DNA from: an uncultured Bacteroidales bacterium
Lineage (GTDB): Bacteria; Bacteroidota; Bacteroidia; Bacteroidales; UBA7960
Reading direction: 5' to 3'
Length of the DNA: 64,000 nucleotides
NCBI GenBank assembly: GCA_964601515.1
Contig: CAZRNU010000001.1
Span: 9,534 to 73,533 of the forward strand
Shown here piece after piece: positions 2,795-58,740 of this stretch. Numbering within the stretch: the first letter of the stretch is position 1; each line of letters begins with the position of its first letter. The translations under genes were made by a program, and so were the position numbers. The notes below the pieces were generated by a model. It saw only the letters and a program-made list of their open reading frames with translations. It did not search any database and was not told where the DNA came from.

Positions 2795-5700
2795 ATGAAG
2801 CAATCAAATTTACCAAACAAAACCAAGATTAAAATGTTAGAAAAAAAATTACTTTTTGGAAAAAGCAAACTAATATCATTAATTATAATGCTCTTAGTTT
2901 GTGCATCAACAAATCTTTATTCACAAACTACAAGAATTGAGTTTGCTGAAAGCAAGAGTTTGCTTGAAGTTAAGTCAAATACAATTACTTCGACCAGAGT
3001 TAATTATGTGTTTGATGGACTAAATGTGCTGGATGTTAAATCAGACAAGGGGACCTTTACTGAGCTTATTATGCCCGAAGGTTATAGTATTGGAAACATT
3101 GGTACTCCCAAGCTTCCCGCTGCAAAAAATCTTATCGAGATTCCATTCGGAGCAGAAGTAACAGTTAAGATTTTGAGCTACACTACTGAGGAGTATAAGC
3201 TTAAAGACTTAGGAATAGTTAATATGTTGATGCCTGTTCAGCCTTCAATTCGCAAGGACCAGGATATTGACAAGATTAAATTTGAATTTGAAAAGGATGT
3301 TTATTTAAAAAACACTTTTATTCAACCTGAAATTGCAACGGTTGAGATATTAGGTGTTTTAAGAGATATGAGATTGGCAAGGCTCACAGTGGCGCCAGTT
3401 TCTTACAATCCTGTAGAAGGAGTTATTAGAGTTGTTAATAATATTGATTTAGAAATTGTTTACACTAACTCTGATGTGGCGTTAACCAATTATATTAAGG
3501 CATCTACATATTCTCCATATTTTGATATAATTAAAAGAACGGTTATAAATCCGATATCAAATAGAGGAGCATTCGAAGATCATCCTGATTTGACAAAAAA
3601 TCCTATAAAGATGCTGATAGTGTCTCACAGAGACTTTGAAGCAACACTTTCTTCATTCATTGAATGGAAAACACAGCAAGGAATTTTTGTAACAGTGGCA
3701 TATACAGATGTTATCGGAACAACAGCCAATGCAGTGAAAACATACATACAAGGCGTTTATAACGAAGCCACTCCGGAAAACCCTGCTCCTTCTTTTGTAG
3801 TAATAGTGGGTGATCCTGGGAAAGTTCCAGCTTCAGCAACCGGAAGTTCTTCAGGACAAGTAACAGACCTTTACTATGCAAGTATAGATGGAGATATGTT
3901 TCCTGATATATATTATGGTAGGCTTTCTGCGAGAAATACGGGAGAGCTTCAAAACCAATTAGACAAAATTTTGTATTATCAAAAATATGAATTTACGGAT
4001 CCAACTTATCTTAATGATGTAACTCTTATTGCCGGATCAGATAGTTATTGGAACCCTGCCGTTGGTCAGCCAACAGTTCATTATGGGACTCAGAACTATT
4101 TTAATACTGCACATGGATTTACAAATGTTAATGCATACTTAAGTACATACACAGGATGCTACGATAATGCAAGAATTTCAGTTGGTTTTATCAATTTTAC
4201 GGCTCATTGTTCGCCAACAAGCTGGGCAGGGCCAACTCTTACAGTGTCAGATGTTCACGCTATGACAAATACAGGTAAATATCCATTAGCTGTTGGTAAC
4301 TGCTGCCAGAGTGGCATGTTTAGTCAGGCTGAATGCATAGGTGAGGCTTGGGTTAGGGCTCAGAATAAAGGTGGAGTTGCATATATTGGTTCCGCACCTA
4401 ATACATATTGGTTTGAAGATTTTTATTGGTCGGTTGGGGCTTTCCCAATTTCAGGCAATAATAATGGATATGTACCAACTGTAGCGGAAACTTCTTTGGG
4501 AGCTTATGATGCACCCTATGCTTCTGAATATTTTTCAGTAGATGCACTAAAATTTGTTGGGAATCTTGCTGTTACTGAAGCACATCTGCAAAGTTATGCG
4601 ACACATTCAAGCCCTTTATATTATTGGCAAGCATACCAAACATTCGGAGACCCTTCCACGGTTATATATTTAACTGAAGGAGAGGAAAATACTGTATCGC
4701 ATATGCCTATACTACCTATTGGTATGGAGTTTTATACTGTAAATGCACTTCCCGGTTCATATGTTGGTATTTCAAAGGATGGAGTTCTTCACGGGGCCTC
4801 ATTTGTTGGGGAATCAGGAGAAGTTAATGTTCCTATTACACCGGTTTTGGATGGGGGAGATGTGATGATTGTTGTAACAAAACCACAACATATACCATAT
4901 ATTCAACTTATACCTGCTGCTGCTTTGGAAGGACCGTTTATTGTAATAGATTCATTTGTTGTAAATGATGATGAAGGAAATAACAATGGACTTATTGACT
5001 ACAATGAAACAATAAAGTTGGACGTAACTGTTAAGAATGTTGGGGCAGATGATGGAATTGGTATTACAGGTACAATTATAGTAGATGATCTTTATTTTAC
5101 TTTGTCAGGAAATAACACTGCCGATTTTGGAAATGTTAATGCAGGAGAAGACAATACAGCAACTGTTTTAAATGCATTTACAATTATTGTTGCAAATAAT
5201 GTCCCGGATCAATATAAAGCATCGTTTGACCTTGCCCTTACTGATGGCGAAAATGATTGGGTTTCAAAAATTAATCTTACTGCTAATGCTCCAAATTTAG
5301 TGTTTCAGACAGTTGTTGTTGATGATGAAGGAGAAGGAATTCCCGGAGTATTAGACCCGGGTGAAACGGCTGACATTGTAGTTACAATTAAAAATACAGG
5401 AGCATCATCAACACTAGACATTGAAGCTATAGCAGAGACCATCAGTCCTTGGGTTACTATAAATACAACGGATGTGGTTGAGCTTACTCAATTGGCTCCG
5501 GGCGAATCTGCTGATGCAATTTTTAATGTTACAGCTTCTATAGATACACCGCTAGAGCAGCCTGTAGAATTTGATTTTACGGCAGCAACCGGTGAGTATG
5601 TGTTTGAAGATACAAAAACTATAATTGTAGGATTAATACCTGTTTATATAATGGGACAAACTGCTACTGTCGAGGCTTGTATTGGGAAATTCTATGATAC

Positions 5701-8399: not shown

Positions 8400-11300
8400 A
8401 TGAAAAAACTATTCTTAACAATTGTATTAATGGCATCGATTATTGTCGTTAATGCTCAAACAAATTGGGTTGGAATTAGCAGTTCAAAGAAAAAAGCCGC
8501 TGAAACAAACCTTGTAAAAAGTGATATTCAAAGTAGTCAGGTTAAATTTTCTCTTGAAGGCTTTGTTGAATCAATGGTTTCAACTCCAAAAGGAATTGAG
8601 AAAACATTAAGCTTATATGATGGTGTGCAAATTATGGAGAAGGGGGCGCCAGATTTAGGTAAGGAGTTCTTTTCAATAATTATTCCCGACACTGATGAAA
8701 TGGCAATTAAAATTGTTAATTCTCAATTTGTTGATTATAAGGGAATTGATATTGCTCCTTCAAAAGGACATTTATACAGAAATGTAAACCCTGAAGATGT
8801 GCCATTTGAATATAGTGATGTCTATTCAAAAGATGCTTTTTGGCCGGGCAACATTGCGCAGCTTGAAGACCCTTTTATTATGCGTGATGTAAGAGGTCAA
8901 ACAGTTACAATTTTTCCTTTTCAATATAATGCTGTAACAAAAACTCTTCGTGTTTATTATGATATTGAACTTGAAATATATAGCACCGGAAACATAGGGA
9001 AAAATACTCTTTCCAGACGTGATAATGTTGTTAAAATCGACCCGGAATTCAATCATATTTATAACAGAATGTTTCTTAACAATAAATCATTTGATAAAAG
9101 CTTTACTATTATCGAGGAAGAAGGAAGCATGCTGATTATTTGTTTTGATGATTATATGAATGCAATGAAACCTTTCGTTGATTGGAAAAGAACCATTGGA
9201 AGAAAAACAACGATAGTTCCTAAGTCAACCGCCGGGACTACCGCTGCCGCAATTAAAACCTTCGTAACGAATTATTATAATGAAAATGATGACTTTACAT
9301 ATCTGCTTATAGTTGGTGATGCTCCTCAAATTCCTACAAACAGCACAAGCTGGGGACATTCTGATAATGCTTATGGTTTTATAGTTGGAGCTGATCAATA
9401 TAATGAGATTATTGTTGGACGTTTTTCTGCTGAAAGTGTTGCCCAAGTTCAAACTCAGGTTCAAAGAATGATACATTATGAAAGAGATATCACAGCTGCG
9501 GATACTTGGTTAAATGTTGGCATGGGTGTAGCCAGAAATGAAGGCGCCGGAAATGGTCATAATGGCGGAGAAGCTGATTATGTTCATGCCGATTTTATAA
9601 GAGATACTTTACTAAATTATACATATTCTGCAGTTCATAGGGAATATGACGGAAATGTACCCGGACTTCCTAATACTACAGCCTCAAGTATTTCTTCGAA
9701 AATTAACAGTGGTGTTTCTATAATTAATTATATTAATCACGGCTCAGACACCGGATGGAGCGTTGCTGATTATAACTCAAGCCATGTAAATGCTCTTACT
9801 AATATTGGGAAACTACCTTTTATTTGGGCTGTTGCTTGTGTGAATGGAAACTTTAATTCTATAACATGTTTTGCGGAAGCATGGATGAGAGCTACACATA
9901 ATGGTGAGCCTACCGGTGCAATTGGAACTTTGATGTCTACAATAAATCAGGCATGGCAACCTCCTATGACAGGTCAGGATGAAATGGTTACTATTCTTGC
10001 TGAAAAAAGAGGTCACATCAAAAGAACTTATGGTGGCCTTTCTATTAATGGAAGTATGGTAATGATTGCTGCTCACGGTGCTTCAGGTACTGAAACACAT
10101 GTTACTTGGAACCTTTTCGGAGATCCTTCTCTAATGGTTAGAACAGATGTACCTCAAGTTATTTCAGCATCCTACAATCCGGTTATTTTGCTGGGATTAA
10201 GCACATTTCAAGTAAATGTTGATAATGCGGAAGGTGCAGTTGTTTCTATTACAAGGCGTAATGAAGATACTCAGGAAGTTGTTATTTTAGGAACTGCTGT
10301 TGTTAATGGCGGTACAGCTCTGGTTGAATTTGTTGAACCAATAGAATCTCCTGGTGTTGCTACATTGGCAATTACTGCTTACAACAAAGTAACGTACATT
10401 AATGATGAACTTGGAATTATTCCTCCGGAAGGTCCTTATGTGGTTTTCAAAAGCCTTACAATAGACGACTCTGCAGAAAATAATAACGGATTGGCTGATT
10501 ACAGCGAAACAGTTTTACTTAATGTAACCTTAGAAAATGTTGGAGTTGAAAATGCTGAAAACATAACAGCTACTTTAACTTCTGAAAACGAATATGTCAA
10601 TATTATTGATGGTAATAGCGCTTGGGGTGATATTGAAGCCGGCGAATTGTCACTGTTGGACGCTGCTTTTACAGTTTCTTTTGCTGATAATACCCCTGAT
10701 CAAGAGAGAGTAAGATTTACAATTGAAATGACCGACGGAAATGAAGTTTGGGAATCTACTTTTAATATTACTGTTAATGCTCCTGTTTTAGTTTTTCAGG
10801 GATTAGTAATTGATGATGGTGGTATGGGTATTCCGGGAATTCTTGACCCGGGCGAAACTGCTGATATAATTACAAATGTTAAAAATATCGGACATGCAAC
10901 AAGTTTGGAAATTATAGTTACTCTTGATACTGAAAGTCCTTGGGTAACGGTTAATACTCTTGAAGCTGTTGAATTAGGCTCTTTGGCTCCAGGAGAAGCT
11001 GCTGAAGCCAATTTTAATGTTACAGCTTTAGAAGAAACCCCTATTGAACAAGCAGTTGAATTATTATATACTGCTGCAACAGGGGAGTATACATTTGAAG
11101 ACTCAAAACAAATTGTGATAGGTCTTATTCCTGTTTATCTGATGGGACAGTCTGCTACAGTTACTGCTCCTATTGGACGTTTTTACGATACAGGCGGCCC
11201 AACAGCAAACTATTCAAACAATGAAAACATCATTATGACATTCTACCCTATGAATCCGGGCTCGGTTCTTGAGTTTGAGTTTTTACATTTTGATGTTGAA

Positions 11301-22947: not shown

Positions 22948-23005
22948 CAAGGTTGGTTGCAGGTTATTTGGTTTTTTTCAGATTTATATGCCAAATAAAC
23001 CATAT

Positions 23006-23107
23006 AGAGACGCCATGCTTGGCGTCTCTGTTCTTGGCGTCTCTGTTGTTTTGCGTCTCTTTTCTTGGCGTCTCTTTTTTACCGGAGACGCCAAGCATGG
23101 CGTCTCT
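23006..23107. repeat. hairpin/half-site array of the AGAGACGCC..GGCGTCTCT family (probable asd terminator region)
   Basis: Hairpin 1 is AGAGACGCCA-tgct-TGGCGTCTCT (23006-23029). Three further half-sites follow at 15-16-nt spacing (TTGGCGTCTCT twice, TTGCGTCTCT once). A second hairpin, GGAGACGCCA-agca-TGGCGTCTCT, occupies 23084-23107. Confidence 0.8.
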
Positions 23108-23256
23108 ACGGATTATTCGGTTTACAAAAATTTTTACCTATTTTTCAGATTTGTTTCATAATTTTGCACACTCCTGAATTGTCAAAATACATTATTTAAT
23201 CAAACAAATCAGGTAGTTTTTGCTTATAATATTAAGCATTCATTTAAAATCATTTT

Positions 23257-24201: not shown

Positions 24202-24268
24202 GGCGTGGGGCAAAGTGCGTGGAGCATAGGGGCTTAGAGCGGAGAGCAGAGTGCGTTGGGCTTGGGAT

Positions 24269-24323
24269 GGGGGTATAAGGTATAAGGTATAAGGTATAAG
24301 GTATAAGGGTGCAGGGTATAGTG
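24269..24323 (+). repeat. GGTATAAG tandem array (solo arm) within a G-rich island following the kinase stop
   Basis: The sequence GGGGGTATAAGGTATAAGGTATAAGGTATAAGGGTGCAGGGTATAGTG has an 8-nt period. It is preceded (24202-24268) by G-rich sequence containing AGTGCGTGGAGC and AGTGCGTTGGGC. Confidence 0.85.
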
Positions 24324-25897: not shown

Positions 25898-25937
25898 GTT
25901 GTAAGTCGGCAGTCGGCAGTCGGCAGTCGAAAGTCAA
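25896..25937 (+). repeat. heptamer tandem array (CAGTCGG-type), starting inside the glyQS stop codon
   Basis: Six 7-nt units are present: AAGTTGT AAGTCGG CAGTCGG CAGTCGG CAGTCGA AAGTCAA. The core units are perfect and the edges are degenerate. Confidence 0.8.
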
Positions 25938-42227: not shown

Positions 42228-42232
42228 TATAA

Positions 42233-42349
42233 CTGTAGAGACGCCATGCTGGCGTCTCTACAGTTTATTATCACATGGGAGACGCTAACATGTTATCTCC
42301 CTGGGTTTTTAAAAAATAAGAGACGCCAGCATGACGTCTCTTATTTTTT
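42233..42349. repeat. three hairpins of the AGAGACGCC..GGCGTCTCT family between convergent genes (probable bidirectional terminators)
   Basis: Hairpin 42233-42263 is CTGTAGAGACGCCA-tgc-TGGCGTCTCTACAG. Hairpin 42277-42301 is a degenerate copy (GGGAGACGCTAACATGTTATCTCCC). Hairpin 42311-42349 is AAAAAATAAGAGACG-ccagcatga-CGTCTCTTATTTTTT. Confidence 0.75.
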
Positions 42350-42374
42350 ATATTTACCAAATCCAAGAAATATT

Positions 42375-44699: not shown

Positions 44700-45440
44700 T
44701 TGATTGATTTGACTTTTTTAAGAATATTCAAAAAAAAAATTACAGCCTCCGACAGAAAACTTTCGGAGGCTGTTAAAAATATATTCGGGTATAAACCTAG
44801 AAATATTGCATTATATAAACTTGCATTTCGTCATAAATCTGCAGCAATTGAAATTATTAATGGAGTAAAACACTGTAATGAAAGGCTTGAATATTTGGGC
44901 GATGCAGTGTTAAGCTCTATAGTTGCAGATTTTCTTTTTAAAAAATTTCCATATAAAGACGAAGGGTTCCTAACAGAAATAAGATCGAGATTGGTTAATC
45001 GAAATAATTTAAACAATCTTTCCAGAAAACTTGGGCTTGATAAGCTTGTTTTGTCATCTGTTGATAATGGTTTTATGGGGTCTTCTATCACGGGTGATGC
45101 TTTTGAAGCCTTTGTTGGCGCACTTTATCTTGATAAAGGCTATGTGTTTACTCAAAAAATTATTATCAATAAGGTATTGAATACTTATATGGACATAGAT
45201 GATATTGTTCAGAAGGAAGTAAACTTCAAAAGTAAAATAATTGAATATACTCAAAAAGAGAAAAGACAAATGGAGTTTGTAATTGCTGAAGAGTCTGAAA
45301 ATGGCAAAAAGCAAAAAATATACGAAGTTAATCTGATTATCGACGGTAAAATAGTTGCCTCAGGCAAAGATTATTCAATTAAAAAAGCCGAACAAAATGC
45401 AGCTGCGTCTGCTTGGGCAAAGCTTTTCCCTTGTGTTTAA
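44700..45440 (+). CDS. rnc: ribonuclease III
   Basis: 246-aa ORF with the RNase III signature ERLEYLGDAVL, the catalytic EAFVGALYLD and a C-terminal dsRBD (KSKIIEYTQKE...AEQNAAASAW). It has an apparent TTG start 5 nt after fabF, with no upstream in-frame ATG. Confidence 0.88.
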   Translation: MIDLTFLRIFKKKITASDRKLSEAVKNIFGYKPRNIALYKLAFRHKSAAIEIINGVKHCNERLEYLGDAVLSSIVADFLFKKFPYKDEGFLTEIRSRLVNRNNLNNLSRKLGLDKLVLSSVDNGFMGSSITGDAFEAFVGALYLDKGYVFTQKIIINKVLNTYMDIDDIVQKEVNFKSKIIEYTQKEKRQMEFVIAEESENGKKQKIYEVNLIIDGKIVASGKDYSIKKAEQNAAASAWAKLFPCV

Positions 45441-55804: not shown

Positions 55805-56572
55805 TTACACTAAACGCAAAAAATCACTTACTAAAGCAAAAAAAACATCAGGTTTGTCTGAGTGCAACCAATGTGTAGCACCATTAATAGTTTTTATTTC
55901 TGCATGGGGAAACTGCATTTTGATTTGATGCATCTCTTTTAAAGTAACATAATCAGATCTCCCTCCTCTGACAAACAAAGCAGGTCCCATGTATGGTTTG
56001 TCAGACGGAATAGCTTCACCGATTTTGTCCATATTTTCAAGAACCGCTCGCATATTTGTTTTCCATCCCAAATTATTTTTATCTTTCCAGTATAAATTCT
56101 TCATCAAAAACTGTAATAGTCTATTACTCTTGATTGTTTTAGACAATAATTCTTCAACATCCTGTCTGGTTTTTTGTTTTGAAAAATCTACTGAAAGCAT
56201 TGCATTTATAATCATCTCGTGCTTATTTTCATATTGCACCGGGCTAATATCTGCAACAATAAGTTTATTTACTCGTTCAGGATAGTCGAATGCAAATTGC
56301 ATTATTGTTTTTCCACCCATAGAATGACCAATCAAATGCGAATTTTTGATATTATGAGTATCCATAAACTCTAAAAGGTCATCGCTCATTGCCTGATAAT
56401 TAAACACATCGCTATGTCCGGATTTTCCGTGATTCCTTTGGTCAACAAGGTAAACTGTATAGTCAGCTTCAAACTTTTTGGCTATTGTAATCCAATTGTC
56501 TAGCATGCCAAAAAGACCGTGTAAGATAATTATAGGTGGTCCGCTACCGATGGATTTATAGTTTAGTTTCAT
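55805..56572 (-). CDS. alpha/beta hydrolase
   Basis: 255-aa ORF with HGLFG near the N-terminus, the nucleophile elbow GHSMGG and a C-terminal His context (GATHWLHSDKP). Confidence 0.85.
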   Translation of the reverse strand: MKLNYKSIGSGPPIIILHGLFGMLDNWITIAKKFEADYTVYLVDQRNHGKSGHSDVFNYQAMSDDLLEFMDTHNIKNSHLIGHSMGGKTIMQFAFDYPERVNKLIVADISPVQYENKHEMIINAMLSVDFSKQKTRQDVEELLSKTIKSNRLLQFLMKNLYWKDKNNLGWKTNMRAVLENMDKIGEAIPSDKPYMGPALFVRGGRSDYVTLKEMHQIKMQFPHAEIKTINGATHWLHSDKPDVFFALVSDFLRLV

Positions 56573-56574
56573 GA

Positions 56575-56652
56575 GGAAGGGGGTAAAGGTTTAGGGGTAT
56601 AAGGGTATAGGGGTATAGGGGTATTGGGGTATAGGGGTATAAGGGTATAAGG
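56575..56652 (+). repeat. left arm: GGGGTATA 8-nt tandem array (G-quadruplex-capable), inverted relative to 57135-57169
   Basis: The sequence is GGAAGGGGGTAAAGGTTTAGGGGTATAAGGGTATAGGGGTATAGGGGTATTGGGGTATAGGGGTATAAGGGTATAAGG. It starts 3 nt from the hydrolase start codon and ends 24 nt before the four-helix-bundle gene stop. Confidence 0.9.
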
Positions 56653-56676
56653 AAATATTGGGATCTATAGATTTTG

Positions 56677-57117
56677 CTATTTTTCATTTTGCAGTTGGGC
56701 TTTTACAAAATTAATATATCCATTTATTGTAATTTTTGCGTCTTCAATTAGACTGACTGCTTTATCAAAATGTGCTCTATTAATATAATGCATATCAAAA
56801 CAAGATATGGTGTGATCTTTCAATTCGAATAAAGACCCTCTTGAAATGCGATAAAATTGAATTCCTTCTTTAAAATGAAATCGCCCATATCCTTCTGCAA
56901 TATTAGCAGTAATGCTAACTGATGCTTTTCTTATCTGGAATGCAAGATTGTGCTTTTCTTCATTTGGAAGTAAAGGAATAATCTCCTGATAAAAAAACAA
57001 CCTAACGACTCTTGCTTTTTTCCAGGCTTCTAAGGTCGTGAAATCCTTGTTTGCATTATACTTTATTGATGCTTCTTCAACACAATCGTCTTCGAAACTG
57101 TGGTTGTCAATTTCCAT
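56677..57117 (-). CDS. four-helix-bundle protein (23S rRNA intervening-sequence protein family)
   Basis: 146-aa ORF. LEAWKKA, QIRKASVSITANIAEGYGRF and FYRISRGSLFELKDH match the signature pattern of this family (W-x-x-A; R-A-x-x-S-I-x-x-N-I-A-E-G; G-S-x-x-E-L). Confidence 0.85.
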   Translation of the reverse strand: MEIDNHSFEDDCVEEASIKYNANKDFTTLEAWKKARVVRLFFYQEIIPLLPNEEKHNLAFQIRKASVSITANIAEGYGRFHFKEGIQFYRISRGSLFELKDHTISCFDMHYINRAHFDKAVSLIEDAKITINGYINFVKAQLQNEK

Positions 57118-57134
57118 ATGGTTAAAAATAATTT

Positions 57135-57169
57135 CCCTATACCTTATACCTCTATACCCTATACCCCTA
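57135..57169 (+). repeat. right arm: C-rich complement of the GGGTATA array, overlapping the pdxJ stop codon
   Basis: The sequence is CCCTATACCTTATACCTCTATACCCTATACCCCTA. Its reverse complement, TAGGGGTATAGGGTATAGAGGTATAAGGTATAGGG, matches the unit of the left arm. Confidence 0.9.
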
Positions 57170-57880
57170 TTTCAACTCCCTCAAATACATCTGAATTGTA
57201 TTCTCTAAACCGAAATACAAGGCATCGCTAATCAATGCATGTCCAATAGAAACTTCTAAAAGATTTGGTATGTTTTGTGCAAAATATTTAAGGTTTTCAA
57301 GGCTAAGGTCGTGTCCTGCATTTATTCCTAATTGTGCATCATTTGCTGCTTTTGCTGCTTCAATAAATGGGGCAATAGCTTTTTCTCTCCCAGATGGGTA
57401 ATCTGCTGCATATGGCTCGGTATATAATTCAATTCTGTCTGTACCTATTTCAGCAGCCTTAAAAATAAATTCAGGTTTTGTTTCAATAAAAATGGAAGTA
57501 CGTATCCCAAGATTTTTAAGTTCAGCAATTACGTCAGTTAAGAAGTCTTTATGCTTTATGGTGTCCCATCCTGCATTTGAAGTAAGTGCATTGGGTGGGT
57601 CCGGAACAAGAGTTGCCTGTGCCGGTTTTATTTCAGCAAGCATATTTAAGAATTTTCTCGTCGGATAACCTTCAATATTAAATTCAGTGCTAACTACCTT
57701 TTTAAGATCATATACATCTTGTAATCTGATATGCCTCTCGTCCGGTCTAGGATGTACTGTAATTCCCTGCGCACCGAATCTTTCACAGTCAATAGCTGCT
57801 TTTACCACATTTGGAATATTACCGCCTCTTGCATTTCGTATTGTAGCAATCTTATTAATGTTAACGCTTAATCTAGTCAT
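57167..57880 (-). CDS. pdxJ: pyridoxine 5'-phosphate synthase
   Basis: 237-aa [44 protein letters not shown] and NAGHDL are all canonical PdxJ motifs. Confidence 0.93.
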
Positions 57881-58683: not shown

Positions 58684-58716
58684 GGGGGTAAGGTATAAGG
58701 GTATAAGGTAATAGGG
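58684..58716 (+). repeat. solo GGTATAAG-type array immediately after the CBS gene stop
   Basis: GGGGGTAAGGTATAAGGGTATAAGGTAATAGGG has the same unit family as 24269-24323 and 56575-56652. Confidence 0.8.
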
Positions 58717-58740
58717 TTTTTCTATAATAATATACGAATA

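Follow-up and report, generated by a model that had tools for sequence, protein, structure and literature searches.

We examined a 64,000-nt stretch of DNA (hereafter the window) from an uncultured Bacteroidales bacterium, positions 9,534 to 73,533 of contig CAZRNU010000001.1 (assembly GCA_964601515.1). We found that a gene for a small four-helix-bundle (4HB) protein of family PF05635, which was originally discovered within rRNA intervening sequences, sits there between two tandem arrays of 7-8-nt units that are complementary to each other. The resulting cassette separates pdxJ from an alpha/beta hydrolase gene, two housekeeping genes that lie directly adjacent in the normal Bacteroidota arrangement. 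The same three-part cassette, i.e. array, gene and complementary array, occurs at dozens of unrelated sites in three bacterial phyla. We favour, at a probability of about 0.55, the reading that it is a selfish cassette, kin to the intervening sequences (IVSs) of 23S rRNA that carry an open reading frame (ORF), which has lodged in a protein-coding operon and would be processed by RNase III from a read-through transcript. The parts of the locus are as follows.

57167..57880, minus strand: pdxJ, the upstream host gene (Pfam PdxJ, E 7.5e-91)
57135..57169, minus strand: 5' arm, a G-rich tandem array of 7-8-nt units, sense strand ATAGGGGTATAGGGTATAGAGGTATAAGGTATAGGG
57118..57134, minus strand: A/T-rich leader of 17 nt, AAATTATTTTTAACCAT, from the 5' arm to the 4HB start codon
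56677..57117, minus strand: 4HB gene, 146 aa (PF05635 23S_rRNA_IVP, TIGR02436)
56653..56676, minus strand: trailer of 24 nt, from the 4HB stop codon to the 3' arm
56573..56652, minus strand: 3' arm, C-rich on the sense strand, CCTTATACCC/CCCTATACC units
55805..56572, minus strand: alpha/beta hydrolase gene (esterase-like; Pfam Abhydrolase_1), the downstream host gene

Read along the sense strand, the pdxJ stop codon is followed by GGGTATA-type units, the leader, the 4HB ORF, the trailer, about 80 nt of complementary CCCTATAC/CCTTATAC units and the hydrolase ATG. The 4HB ORF is the only one between the arms, and the sequence, the ORF list and Tandem Repeats Finder agree in this respect with a first-pass annotation that had been made from the sequence alone. 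That annotation had also described a cassette wedged tightly between two same-strand genes. Indeed, pdxJ, the 4HB gene and the hydrolase gene are all on the minus strand, and the right arm overlaps the pdxJ stop codon as claimed (TAG at 57167-57169, 'cta' on the plus strand), the codon lying in the first unit of the 5' arm. The left arm had been said to end 3 nt from the hydrolase start, and the distance from the ATG (56570-56572) to the first degenerate unit is 2-3 nt. Both in the window and in a relative with the same insertion (locus L002), the pdxJ stop is the TAG of a TATAGGGG unit. Because the genes are on the minus strand, the mRNA carries the long left array in its C-rich form, 3' of the 4HB gene. 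The gene neighbourhood of the 4HB gene comprises pdxJ, the hydrolase gene and genes for a CBS-domain protein, a POTRA protein and a type IX secretion system (T9SS) protease.

Tandem Repeats Finder reported two arrays. The one at 56580-56652 has a period of 8/16 nt and 7.8 copies with 88% matches; the other, at 57135-57170, consists of the complementary units with a period of 7/15 nt. Taken together, they have periods of 7-8 and 4.4-7.8 copies. The 8-nt array first described on the plus strand at 56575-56652 is thus present, with degenerate units from 56575 to about 56591. Being intergenic and built head to tail of 6-9-nt units in variable copy number, the arrays qualify as long simple-sequence repeats (LSSRs) or as heptamer arrays of the short tandemly repeated repetitive (STRR) type. 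A two-unit pattern, GGGTATARGGGTATA, searched with at most two mismatches, matched 11 times in the window versus 0.11 expected from shuffles; the left array accounts for seven of these matches and the right array for one, which is on the opposite strand. When the arms are aligned with each other, 37 of 40 positions match, with 13 nt between the end of the aligned 5' arm and the 4HB ATG and 20 nt between the 4HB stop and the aligned 3' arm. A repeat search returned inverted arm pairs of up to 27 nt, the shorter ones being 89-100% complementary. The 3' arm is about twice as long as the 5' arm (78 vs 35 nt) and ends 0-2 nt before the hydrolase ATG.

The 4HB protein clearly belongs to PF05635, with 88 bits against a cut-off of 33.8 (E 5.8e-25), and to TIGR02436, 'four helix bundle protein', with 76.6 bits against a cut-off of 24 (E 1.5e-21). 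Among families of small proteins that still await characterisation, PF05635 is one of the more frequent in Bacteroidota, Cyanobacteria and Xanthomonadales. The ORF is intact and conserved, with 39 invariant columns among 26 homologues and a fixed core of residues S68, N72, E75, G76, Y77 and R79. Scans against PADLOC and PHROGs gave no match and PF05635 was the sole Pfam match, so a defence or phage label for the protein is without support; we know of no catalytic motif in it. The closest solved structure is XCC0516 of Xanthomonas campestris (PDB 2GSC, E 9e-10), which is described as a homopentamer of four-helix bundles (PMC4990558, citing Lin 2006). The window, at 34.7% G+C, contains this single 4HB gene, as a tblastn search of it with the 4HB protein found no second copy.

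To compare filled and empty sites, we took 80 genomic loci with close PdxJ relatives from species-representative genomes of Bacteroidota. At 59 of the 80, pdxJ is succeeded by the same hydrolase gene, in the same orientation, and neither the 4HB gene nor arrays of this kind intervene. The gap between pdxJ and the hydrolase gene is at most 30 nt at about 32 of these empty sites, and in some the stop and start codons overlap. In the nearest empty-site representatives, whose PdxJ is 79-81% identical, the spacers measure 47-232 nt, are unrelated and contain no GGGTATA arrays. An orthologous filled site was found in L002-L004/L101, where PdxJ, the hydrolase and the 4HB protein are 88%, 92% and 83% identical to those of the window; the arms in L002/L101 consist of the window's units in other numbers. 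Since the 59 sites lack both gene and arrays and the filled relative has both, the gene and its arms are present or absent together. Both the 59 empty junctions and the arms beside the gene in L002/L101 agree with the insertion that the first-pass annotation had proposed.

The array also reaches into the host gene. PdxJ ends in ...YLRELK* in the window (57167-57185) and in the empty-site genomes, whereas in L002 array sequence stands in place of the final two codons of pdxJ and the protein ends in ...YLREIGV*, read from array units (L002 3900-3917). The 4HB protein has remained intact since insertion, and the arrays have altered in length. The comparison of filled with empty sites defined no target-site duplication or exact insertion boundary, because even the closest genomes with an empty site have diverged too far (PdxJ about 80% identical) and have spacers without relation to one another.

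The pdxJ-hydrolase junction holds other inserts as well. In other genomes (L032 5216-5518 and 5741-5778; L033 5050-5117), a membrane-protein gene occupies it, with a small GIY-YIG nuclease gene in addition in L032, and there are other short arrays (CACACCC, TTCCATG) before the hydrolase start. It looks as if insertions land at this junction repeatedly. The spacer of Algoriphagus and of one more genome (L073 4212-4339; L067 4212-4489) contains gene-less inverted repeats with units GTCAACGGTCGACAGACC... and AAGTGCCTAAAGT..., possibly remnants of other cassettes. A metagenome-assembled genome labelled Thiohalospira sp. (Gammaproteobacteria; P0010, L034) has a PdxJ 73% and a 4HB protein 76% identical to those of the window, and this bin is probably mislabelled or contaminated.

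The layout is not confined to this junction. Of the close homologues of the 4HB protein (65-76% identical), one is encoded between prfA and pyrF and another between the genes for an enoyl-CoA hydratase and a CNNM protein, and in both cases a G-rich array lies upstream and a complementary C-rich array downstream. For a census, 80 metagenomic loci were chosen by the 4HB protein only, of which 61 were non-redundant and had both flanks. Complementarity was tested between the 150 nt upstream and the 150 nt downstream, with the 99th percentile of shuffles as the threshold. It was significant at 46 of the 61 4HB loci and at none of 42 neighbouring control genes, with median scores of 34 and 17, respectively. 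Inverted flanks thus occur in the great majority of other family members. Of the refuting observations named in the first-pass annotation, the two that sequence can check, namely a relative with the gene but no repeat arms and other family copies without inverted flanks, therefore do not apply. Within a locus, the 3' arm suits the 5' arm better than 3' arms taken from elsewhere in the census (mean percentile 0.71, p = 9e-7), which argues that the two arms of a locus evolve together. Near-identical strains differ in unit number (L008, L009, L010).

The association also holds when the search starts from the arrays. Among 100 GGNATA-type arrays in the census loci, 83 are in canonical positions; background Bacteroidota DNA yielded only 2 such arrays, both weak, in 547 kb. 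In all the DNA examined, an unbiased search gave 67 inverted array pairs. A catalogued 4HB gene is enclosed by 48 of these, and 6 further pairs enclose other PF05635 genes or a pseudogene, including L141 and L173, which belong to a different subfamily and have quite different repeat units. Of the 50 cassettes with two assignable neighbours, 43 are co-directional with both. Next to an intact cassette, a frameshifted 4HB pseudogene is still flanked by both arrays (L114 139-687), and next to another an ORF-less hairpin remains, in which a G-type array, a 67-nt loop and a C-type array follow each other (L112 367-588). Together with the intact cassette, these two form a decay series. The cassette, which the first-pass annotation had taken for a small mobile or mobilisable module without its own recombinase, has demonstrably come to lie at many different sites; as to movement, no mechanism is visible.

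Similar cassettes occur well outside the Bacteroidota. Cyanobacterial plasmids carry 4HB genes whose products are 30-35% identical to that of the window. The gene in Picosynechococcus lies between cmr2 and cmr3 with flanking GGAGATAA/TTATCTCC arrays, that of Nostoc punctiforme is flanked by CAGGAGT/ACTCCTG heptamers, and that of Stanieria by GGCAGAA/TTCTGCC. In Xanthomonas and Rhodanobacter, orthologues of XCC0516 are encoded between accB and accC (L187 1924-2372; L190 1984-2436), flanked by GGGAATC or GGGATTC heptamers and their complements, with the 3' arm ending at the accC ATG. The XCC0516-type gene thus splits the accB-accC operon, and, to judge from the PDB sequence, the GGGAATC array itself seems to encode the first few residues of the protein. 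Among informative loci, most or all in each phylum examined have the purine-rich arm on the 5' side of the ORF, as read on the sense strand. The repeat unit is fully replaced between lineages, while the protein core is fixed. Xanthomonas genomes are known to contain about 186 GGGAATC arrays each, 70-75 of them in convergent pairs (Rehm and colleagues, PMC4692102), and heptamer arrays in general are described as intergenic and variable in copy number between relatives, some abutting start codons (PMC4692102 and a second paper). PF05635 genes have previously been reported wedged in cas operons (PMC3936711) and within rRNA insertions of bacteria of the candidate phyla radiation (CPR).

The closest known relatives of this anatomy are the rRNA IVSs of Leptospira, Coxiella burnetii and Brucella. 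The 23S rRNA IVS of C. burnetii has an S23p ORF, a 28-bp terminal stem with RNase III cuts mapped inside it, and tandem GACAGAT heptamers before the ORF whose number varies among strains (PMC4990558). The link to rRNA intervening sequences drawn in the first-pass annotation is thus apt, as this IVS has the same ORF family, a terminal stem and variable heptamers, and is demonstrably cut by RNase III (PMC4990558). The likeness extends further. The two kinds of element are of similar size (about 600 nt here, 428-759 nt for IVSs), carry a PF05635 ORF within terminal inverted repeats predicted to form a long stem around it, have tandem 7-8-nt units in the arms that vary among strains (two or three GACAGAT copies in Coxiella), lack a recombinase gene and are oriented with the host transcript; ORF-containing, decaying and ORF-less forms exist of both. 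They differ in that the window element lies between protein-coding genes, whereas IVSs reside in helix 25 or 45 of 23S rRNA; its arms are longer arrays (35 and 78 nt); its ORF is intact and strongly conserved, whereas that of Coxiella is decaying and probably untranslated; and RNase III cleavage is demonstrated for IVSs and predicted for the window cassette. An rRNA IVS in the strict sense is ruled out by location, since the flanks are pdxJ and the hydrolase gene and not a helix of 23S or 16S rRNA, and a scan of the whole window at gathering thresholds detected no Rfam family, rRNA included. Terminal inverted repeats that can enclose the ORF in a stem are present (37/40 positions; predicted fold z = -4.9). 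The cassette fits the structural definition of an ORF-carrying IVS but not the defining rRNA location, and would work as an IVS does without being one.

To examine the enclosing stem, we folded the sense RNA 57190-56550. In the predicted fold, the arms are paired around the ORF with a dG of -152.3 kcal/mol, compared with -119 +/- 7 kcal/mol for shuffled RNAs (z = -4.9). Of an RNase III step, the prerequisites are thus present: the predicted stem reaches 20 bp or more, and the window encodes the enzyme.

44700..45440, plus strand: rnc (RNase III), with Ribonuclease_3 and dsrm domains, downstream of fabF

The IVS-like anatomy, the co-orientation with the host genes and the lack of anything resembling a promoter or recombinase suggest that the element resides within the transcripts of its host. 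According to this model, the cassette, composed of a purine/G-rich tandem array, a short leader, the PF05635 ORF, a trailer and the complementary pyrimidine-rich array, would have inserted between the pdxJ stop and the hydrolase start, codons that abut or overlap in most Bacteroidota. It would since have been inherited vertically, with purifying selection on the protein and with arrays that gain and lose units. As no recombinase is recognisable and the orientation is shared with the hosts, read-through transcription from pdxJ is most likely. In the transcript, the arms would pair into a stem of about 40 bp with the whole 4HB ORF looped out, and host RNase III would cut this stem as it does in the Coxiella and Leptospira IVSs. 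The cut would free the 4HB mRNA as a molecule of its own and divide the host message where this does no harm, which would make the insertion tolerable to the operon. The data show the architecture and its recurrence, the empty sites, the joint evolution of the arms and the shared orientation with host genes; the formation of the stem in vivo, its cleavage by RNase III and any effects on expression are what we infer from the fold and from the IVS precedent.

Several observations weigh against this reading. Transition mismatches between the arms favour G.U pairing in the sense RNA weakly (58 vs 41, p = 0.11), an asymmetry that leaves room for selection on DNA pairing or on protein-repeat binding. 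With arms of unequal length (35 vs 78 nt), a large part of the 3' arm would have no pairing partner. At 15 of the 61 census loci, no significant complementarity was found within 150 nt, and in Pseudanabaena the arrays around the 4HB gene that lies between cas6 and cas4 are direct repeats of each other in orientation, not inverted. Inverted arrays are not exclusive to PF05635 genes, as in L056, another Bacteroidota genome, inverted CAGTCGG/CAGTCAG arrays (score 84) bracket the D-Tyr-tRNA(Tyr) deacylase gene (dtd) and not a 4HB gene. Solo arrays exist without partners. Finally, 4HB paralogues within a genome are only 54-66% identical, which gives no sign of recent transposition. A further candidate pairing, between the last codons of pdxJ (GAGGGAG) and CCCCCTTCCTC immediately before the ATG of the hydrolase gene, has no counterpart in L002.

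Some details of these loci may be added. In Pseudanabaena (L186), about 15 AAAAGCT units lie upstream and about 9 AAAAGCC units downstream (1050-1197 and 1558-1662). In L056, the arrays are at 2619-2656, 2803-2882 and 3362-3422; besides the inverted pair, there is one in direct orientation at a distance of 146 nt.

The main rival places the action of the arms at the DNA level, a possible reading but an unlikely one in our judgement. The arms would mark the termini of a mobile element; a recombinase supplied in trans, or the 4HB protein, would recognise them in the form of repeats or of single-stranded hairpins, and the RNA stem would be a by-product; solo arrays and ORF-less hairpins would be non-autonomous derivatives, like the inverted repetitive extragenic palindromes (REPs) around the gene for a REP-associated tyrosine transposase (RAYT). 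Such ends would suit the many unrelated sites occupied, the empty sites without arrays, the ORF-less hairpin and the pseudogene cassette, and the non-significant G.U asymmetry. The flanking unit of the Xanthomonas cassette, GGGAATC, is moreover the unit of the roughly 186 genome-wide arrays, 70-75 of which form convergent pairs (PMC4692102), and non-canonical GGNATA arrays are more frequent near cassettes, at about 17 per 280 kb versus 2 per 547 kb of background. In the window itself, two solo arrays of the same unit family are found.

24272..24308, plus strand: solo GGTATAA x5 array, upstream of the glycyl-tRNA synthetase gene
58684..58717, plus strand (sense orientation): solo array, GGGGTAAGGTATAAGGGTATAAGGTAATAGGG, between the CBS-domain gene and a POTRA/BamA-like gene

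The position of the array at 58684-58717 is conserved in the relative L002/L101, and no complementary partner was found near it; no partner arm was found for the array at 24272-24308 either. On the other side, the 4HB protein has no known catalytic motif and matches PF05635 only, with nothing in PADLOC or PHROGs. None of the loci examined has a transposase or integrase gene next to the cassette, the search for a target-site duplication defined none, and the paralogues within a genome are old at 54-66% identity. The co-orientation of 43 out of 50 cassettes with their hosts and the upstream position of the purine-rich arm fit an RNA role better. The RNA-level and DNA-level readings are not mutually exclusive.

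Established DNA elements offer only partial parallels. In the RAYT/REP system, a single small gene is reportedly bracketed by an inverted short repeat that also has solo and hairpin copies in the genome (Nunvar 2010; Bertels & Rainey 2011). The RAYT differs in being an HUH/Y1 transposase of known mechanism, where the 4HB protein has none, and REPs are palindromes, not tandem arrays. A miniature inverted-repeat transposable element (MITE) or REP-type element was rejected for the window cassette, which has a conserved ORF and no definable target-site duplication, although the ORF-less hairpin at L112 367-588 does look MITE-like. Integron cassettes resemble it in having a single promoterless, co-directional ORF dependent on outside transcription and a structured, imperfect inverted repeat; they differ in that attC, with its R and L boxes, is on one side and the cassettes are arrayed beside intI, whereas here two arms of tandem units flank scattered single insertions. 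With arms on both sides and no integrase among the neighbours at any locus, an integron cassette was rejected. A CRISPR array was likewise rejected, as the units are 7-8 nt and contiguous without spacers, unlike CRISPR repeats of 23-50 nt with unique spacers.

A broader proposal, more speculative and rather improbable as it stands, is that PF05635 proteins are the trans-acting partners of genome-wide heptamer/octamer arrays (STRR, GGGAATC, GGGTATA) in a RAYT-REP-like manner. The bracketed gene would be the master copy and the solo arrays and hairpins its offspring; spread could proceed via RNase III-released RNA, with the Avd-like 4HB protein recruiting a reverse transcriptase, and rRNA IVSs would be the subset that landed in rRNA. 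Avd, a homologue, is an accessory protein of the reverse transcriptase of diversity-generating retroelements (DGRs) and is essential for retrohoming. The two share a homologous family or fold, Avd being a pentameric four-helix bundle that PF05635 resembles, and differ in that no reverse transcriptase, template or variable repeat lies beside the window gene or its homologues. We know of no description of Avd genes in DGRs as flanked by inverted arrays. A DGR was rejected for the window, given the lack of a reverse transcriptase, of a template/variable repeat and of a long direct repeat pair in 56450-57300.

It is less probable still that the arrays are DNA or RNA binding sites for the pentameric 4HB protein, serving autoregulation or message protection, with their inverted symmetry secondary. 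The 3-14 near-identical 7-8-nt units are a typical format for a cooperative oligomer, and XCC0516 is a homopentamer (PMC4990558); the role of the homologue Avd in retrohoming and the co-evolution of the arms at each locus point the same way. However, the unit changes completely between lineages while the core residues S68 to R79 listed above stay fixed, and the conserved property is the complementarity of the arms, not their identity.

The first-pass annotation had given prominence to the G-quadruplex (G4) potential of the arms, which is real for the left arm and is not a property of the family. A canonical G4 expression has a single match in the 64 kb, at 56594-56621 on the plus strand. Across the family, a canonical motif occurs in 17 of 61 upstream and 16 of 61 downstream arms (about 27% of arms); many arms are built of GGTATAA units with only two Gs, and the cyanobacterial CAGGAGT and GGAGATAA units cannot form a G4. 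In the long arm, besides, it is the template and not the sense strand that is G-rich and G4-capable, and the mRNA carries the C-rich version, while the G-rich arm of the sense strand lacks four G3 tracts within 7-nt loops. Emphasis on G4s is thus unsupported for the family, and a conserved G4-forming regulatory repeat was rejected, the motif being present in the window arm and in a minority of related arms. That the left array is a G4 regulatory element in an incidentally inverted layout is therefore very improbable, notwithstanding that the only canonical (G3+N1-7)x4 motif of the window falls in it and that Xanthomonas GGGAATC arrays have been studied as quadruplex-forming repeats (PMC4692102).

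Chance, i.e. slippage-prone simple repeats on both sides of an ordinary small gene, could draw on the many heptamer/octamer arrays of diverse sequence in Bacteroidota intergenic DNA (83 in 547 kb) and on other array types in the window, such as AGTCGGC at 25903-25935, yet it has practically no probability left: the pattern count (11 vs 0.11) and the recurrence of the layout in three phyla speak against it, and the census (46/61 loci vs 0/42 controls, 83/100 arrays canonical, 48 of 67 inverted pairs around a catalogued 4HB gene and 6 more around other PF05635 genes or a pseudogene) refutes it.

Other repeats in the window deserve mention. An irregular G-rich stretch, GGCGTGGGGCAAAGTGCGTGGAGCATAGGGGCTTAGAGCGGAGAGCAGAGTGCGTTGGGCTTGGGATGGGGG, at 24202-24271 leads into the GGTATAA array and has 45% G+C amid A/T-rich intergenic DNA. 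The AGTCGGC heptamer array (x4) directly follows the glycyl-tRNA synthetase stop, and related CAGTCGG/CAGTCAG arrays are those of L056. Copies of a G+C-rich palindrome, AGAGACGCCAKGCWKGGCGTCTCT, lie at 22990-23130 and 42230-42350, several per intergenic region; they are partly tandem with a 15-nt period (CTTGGCGTCTCTGTT x3.8) and resemble a REP-type hairpin family in a 35% G+C genome.

STRRs, LSSRs and the Xanthomonas GGGAATC repeats have been catalogued and proposed to be G-quadruplex or translational elements, with no agreed function. Like the cyanobacterial STRRs, the Xanthomonas GGGAATC, Nostoc GGGGA(C/T)T and Beggiatoaceae TAACTGA arrays, the arms described here are intergenic tandem arrays of 7-nt units (7-8 nt here), often G-rich and variable in copy number among relatives; the Xanthomonas arrays often form convergent inverted pairs, some arrays abut start codons, and the arms of the Xanthomonas XCC0516 orthologue are themselves made of GGGAATC units. 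The difference is that published accounts make no link to PF05635 (PMC4692102 and another), whereas here the arrays are the paired arms of a cassette. PMC4692102 and the second heptamer-array paper contain no mention of S23, four helix or intervening sequences. Our literature search, in which subscription journals were thinly covered, found no earlier account of tandem arrays on either side of PF05635 genes beyond rRNA; those who curate the family may be aware of the connection already. PF05635 genes in cas operons and rRNA insertions were known before, as were heptamer arrays; what seems to be new is the joining of the two outside rRNA.

The finding ties together two long-unexplained features of bacterial genomes, the PF05635 gene and the heptamer tandem array, in that the gene as a rule lies between inverted arrays, whether in rRNA, in accBC, in cas operons or between pdxJ and the hydrolase gene. 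A single phenomenon may thus underlie IVSs, 4HB genes embedded in operons and some of the heptamer repeats of bacteria. The presence of PF05635 genes in cas loci, where they have been counted among candidate cas-associated functions, is placed in the same light. Such cassettes split operons and rewrite gene ends, as with the pdxJ stop codon that comes from the array. The accB-XCC0516-accC locus of X. campestris offers a tractable model, in a cultivable organism and with a crystal structure of the protein. The rRNA IVS would then be recast as one landing site of a general cassette that tolerates, and maybe exploits, residence in any transcript.

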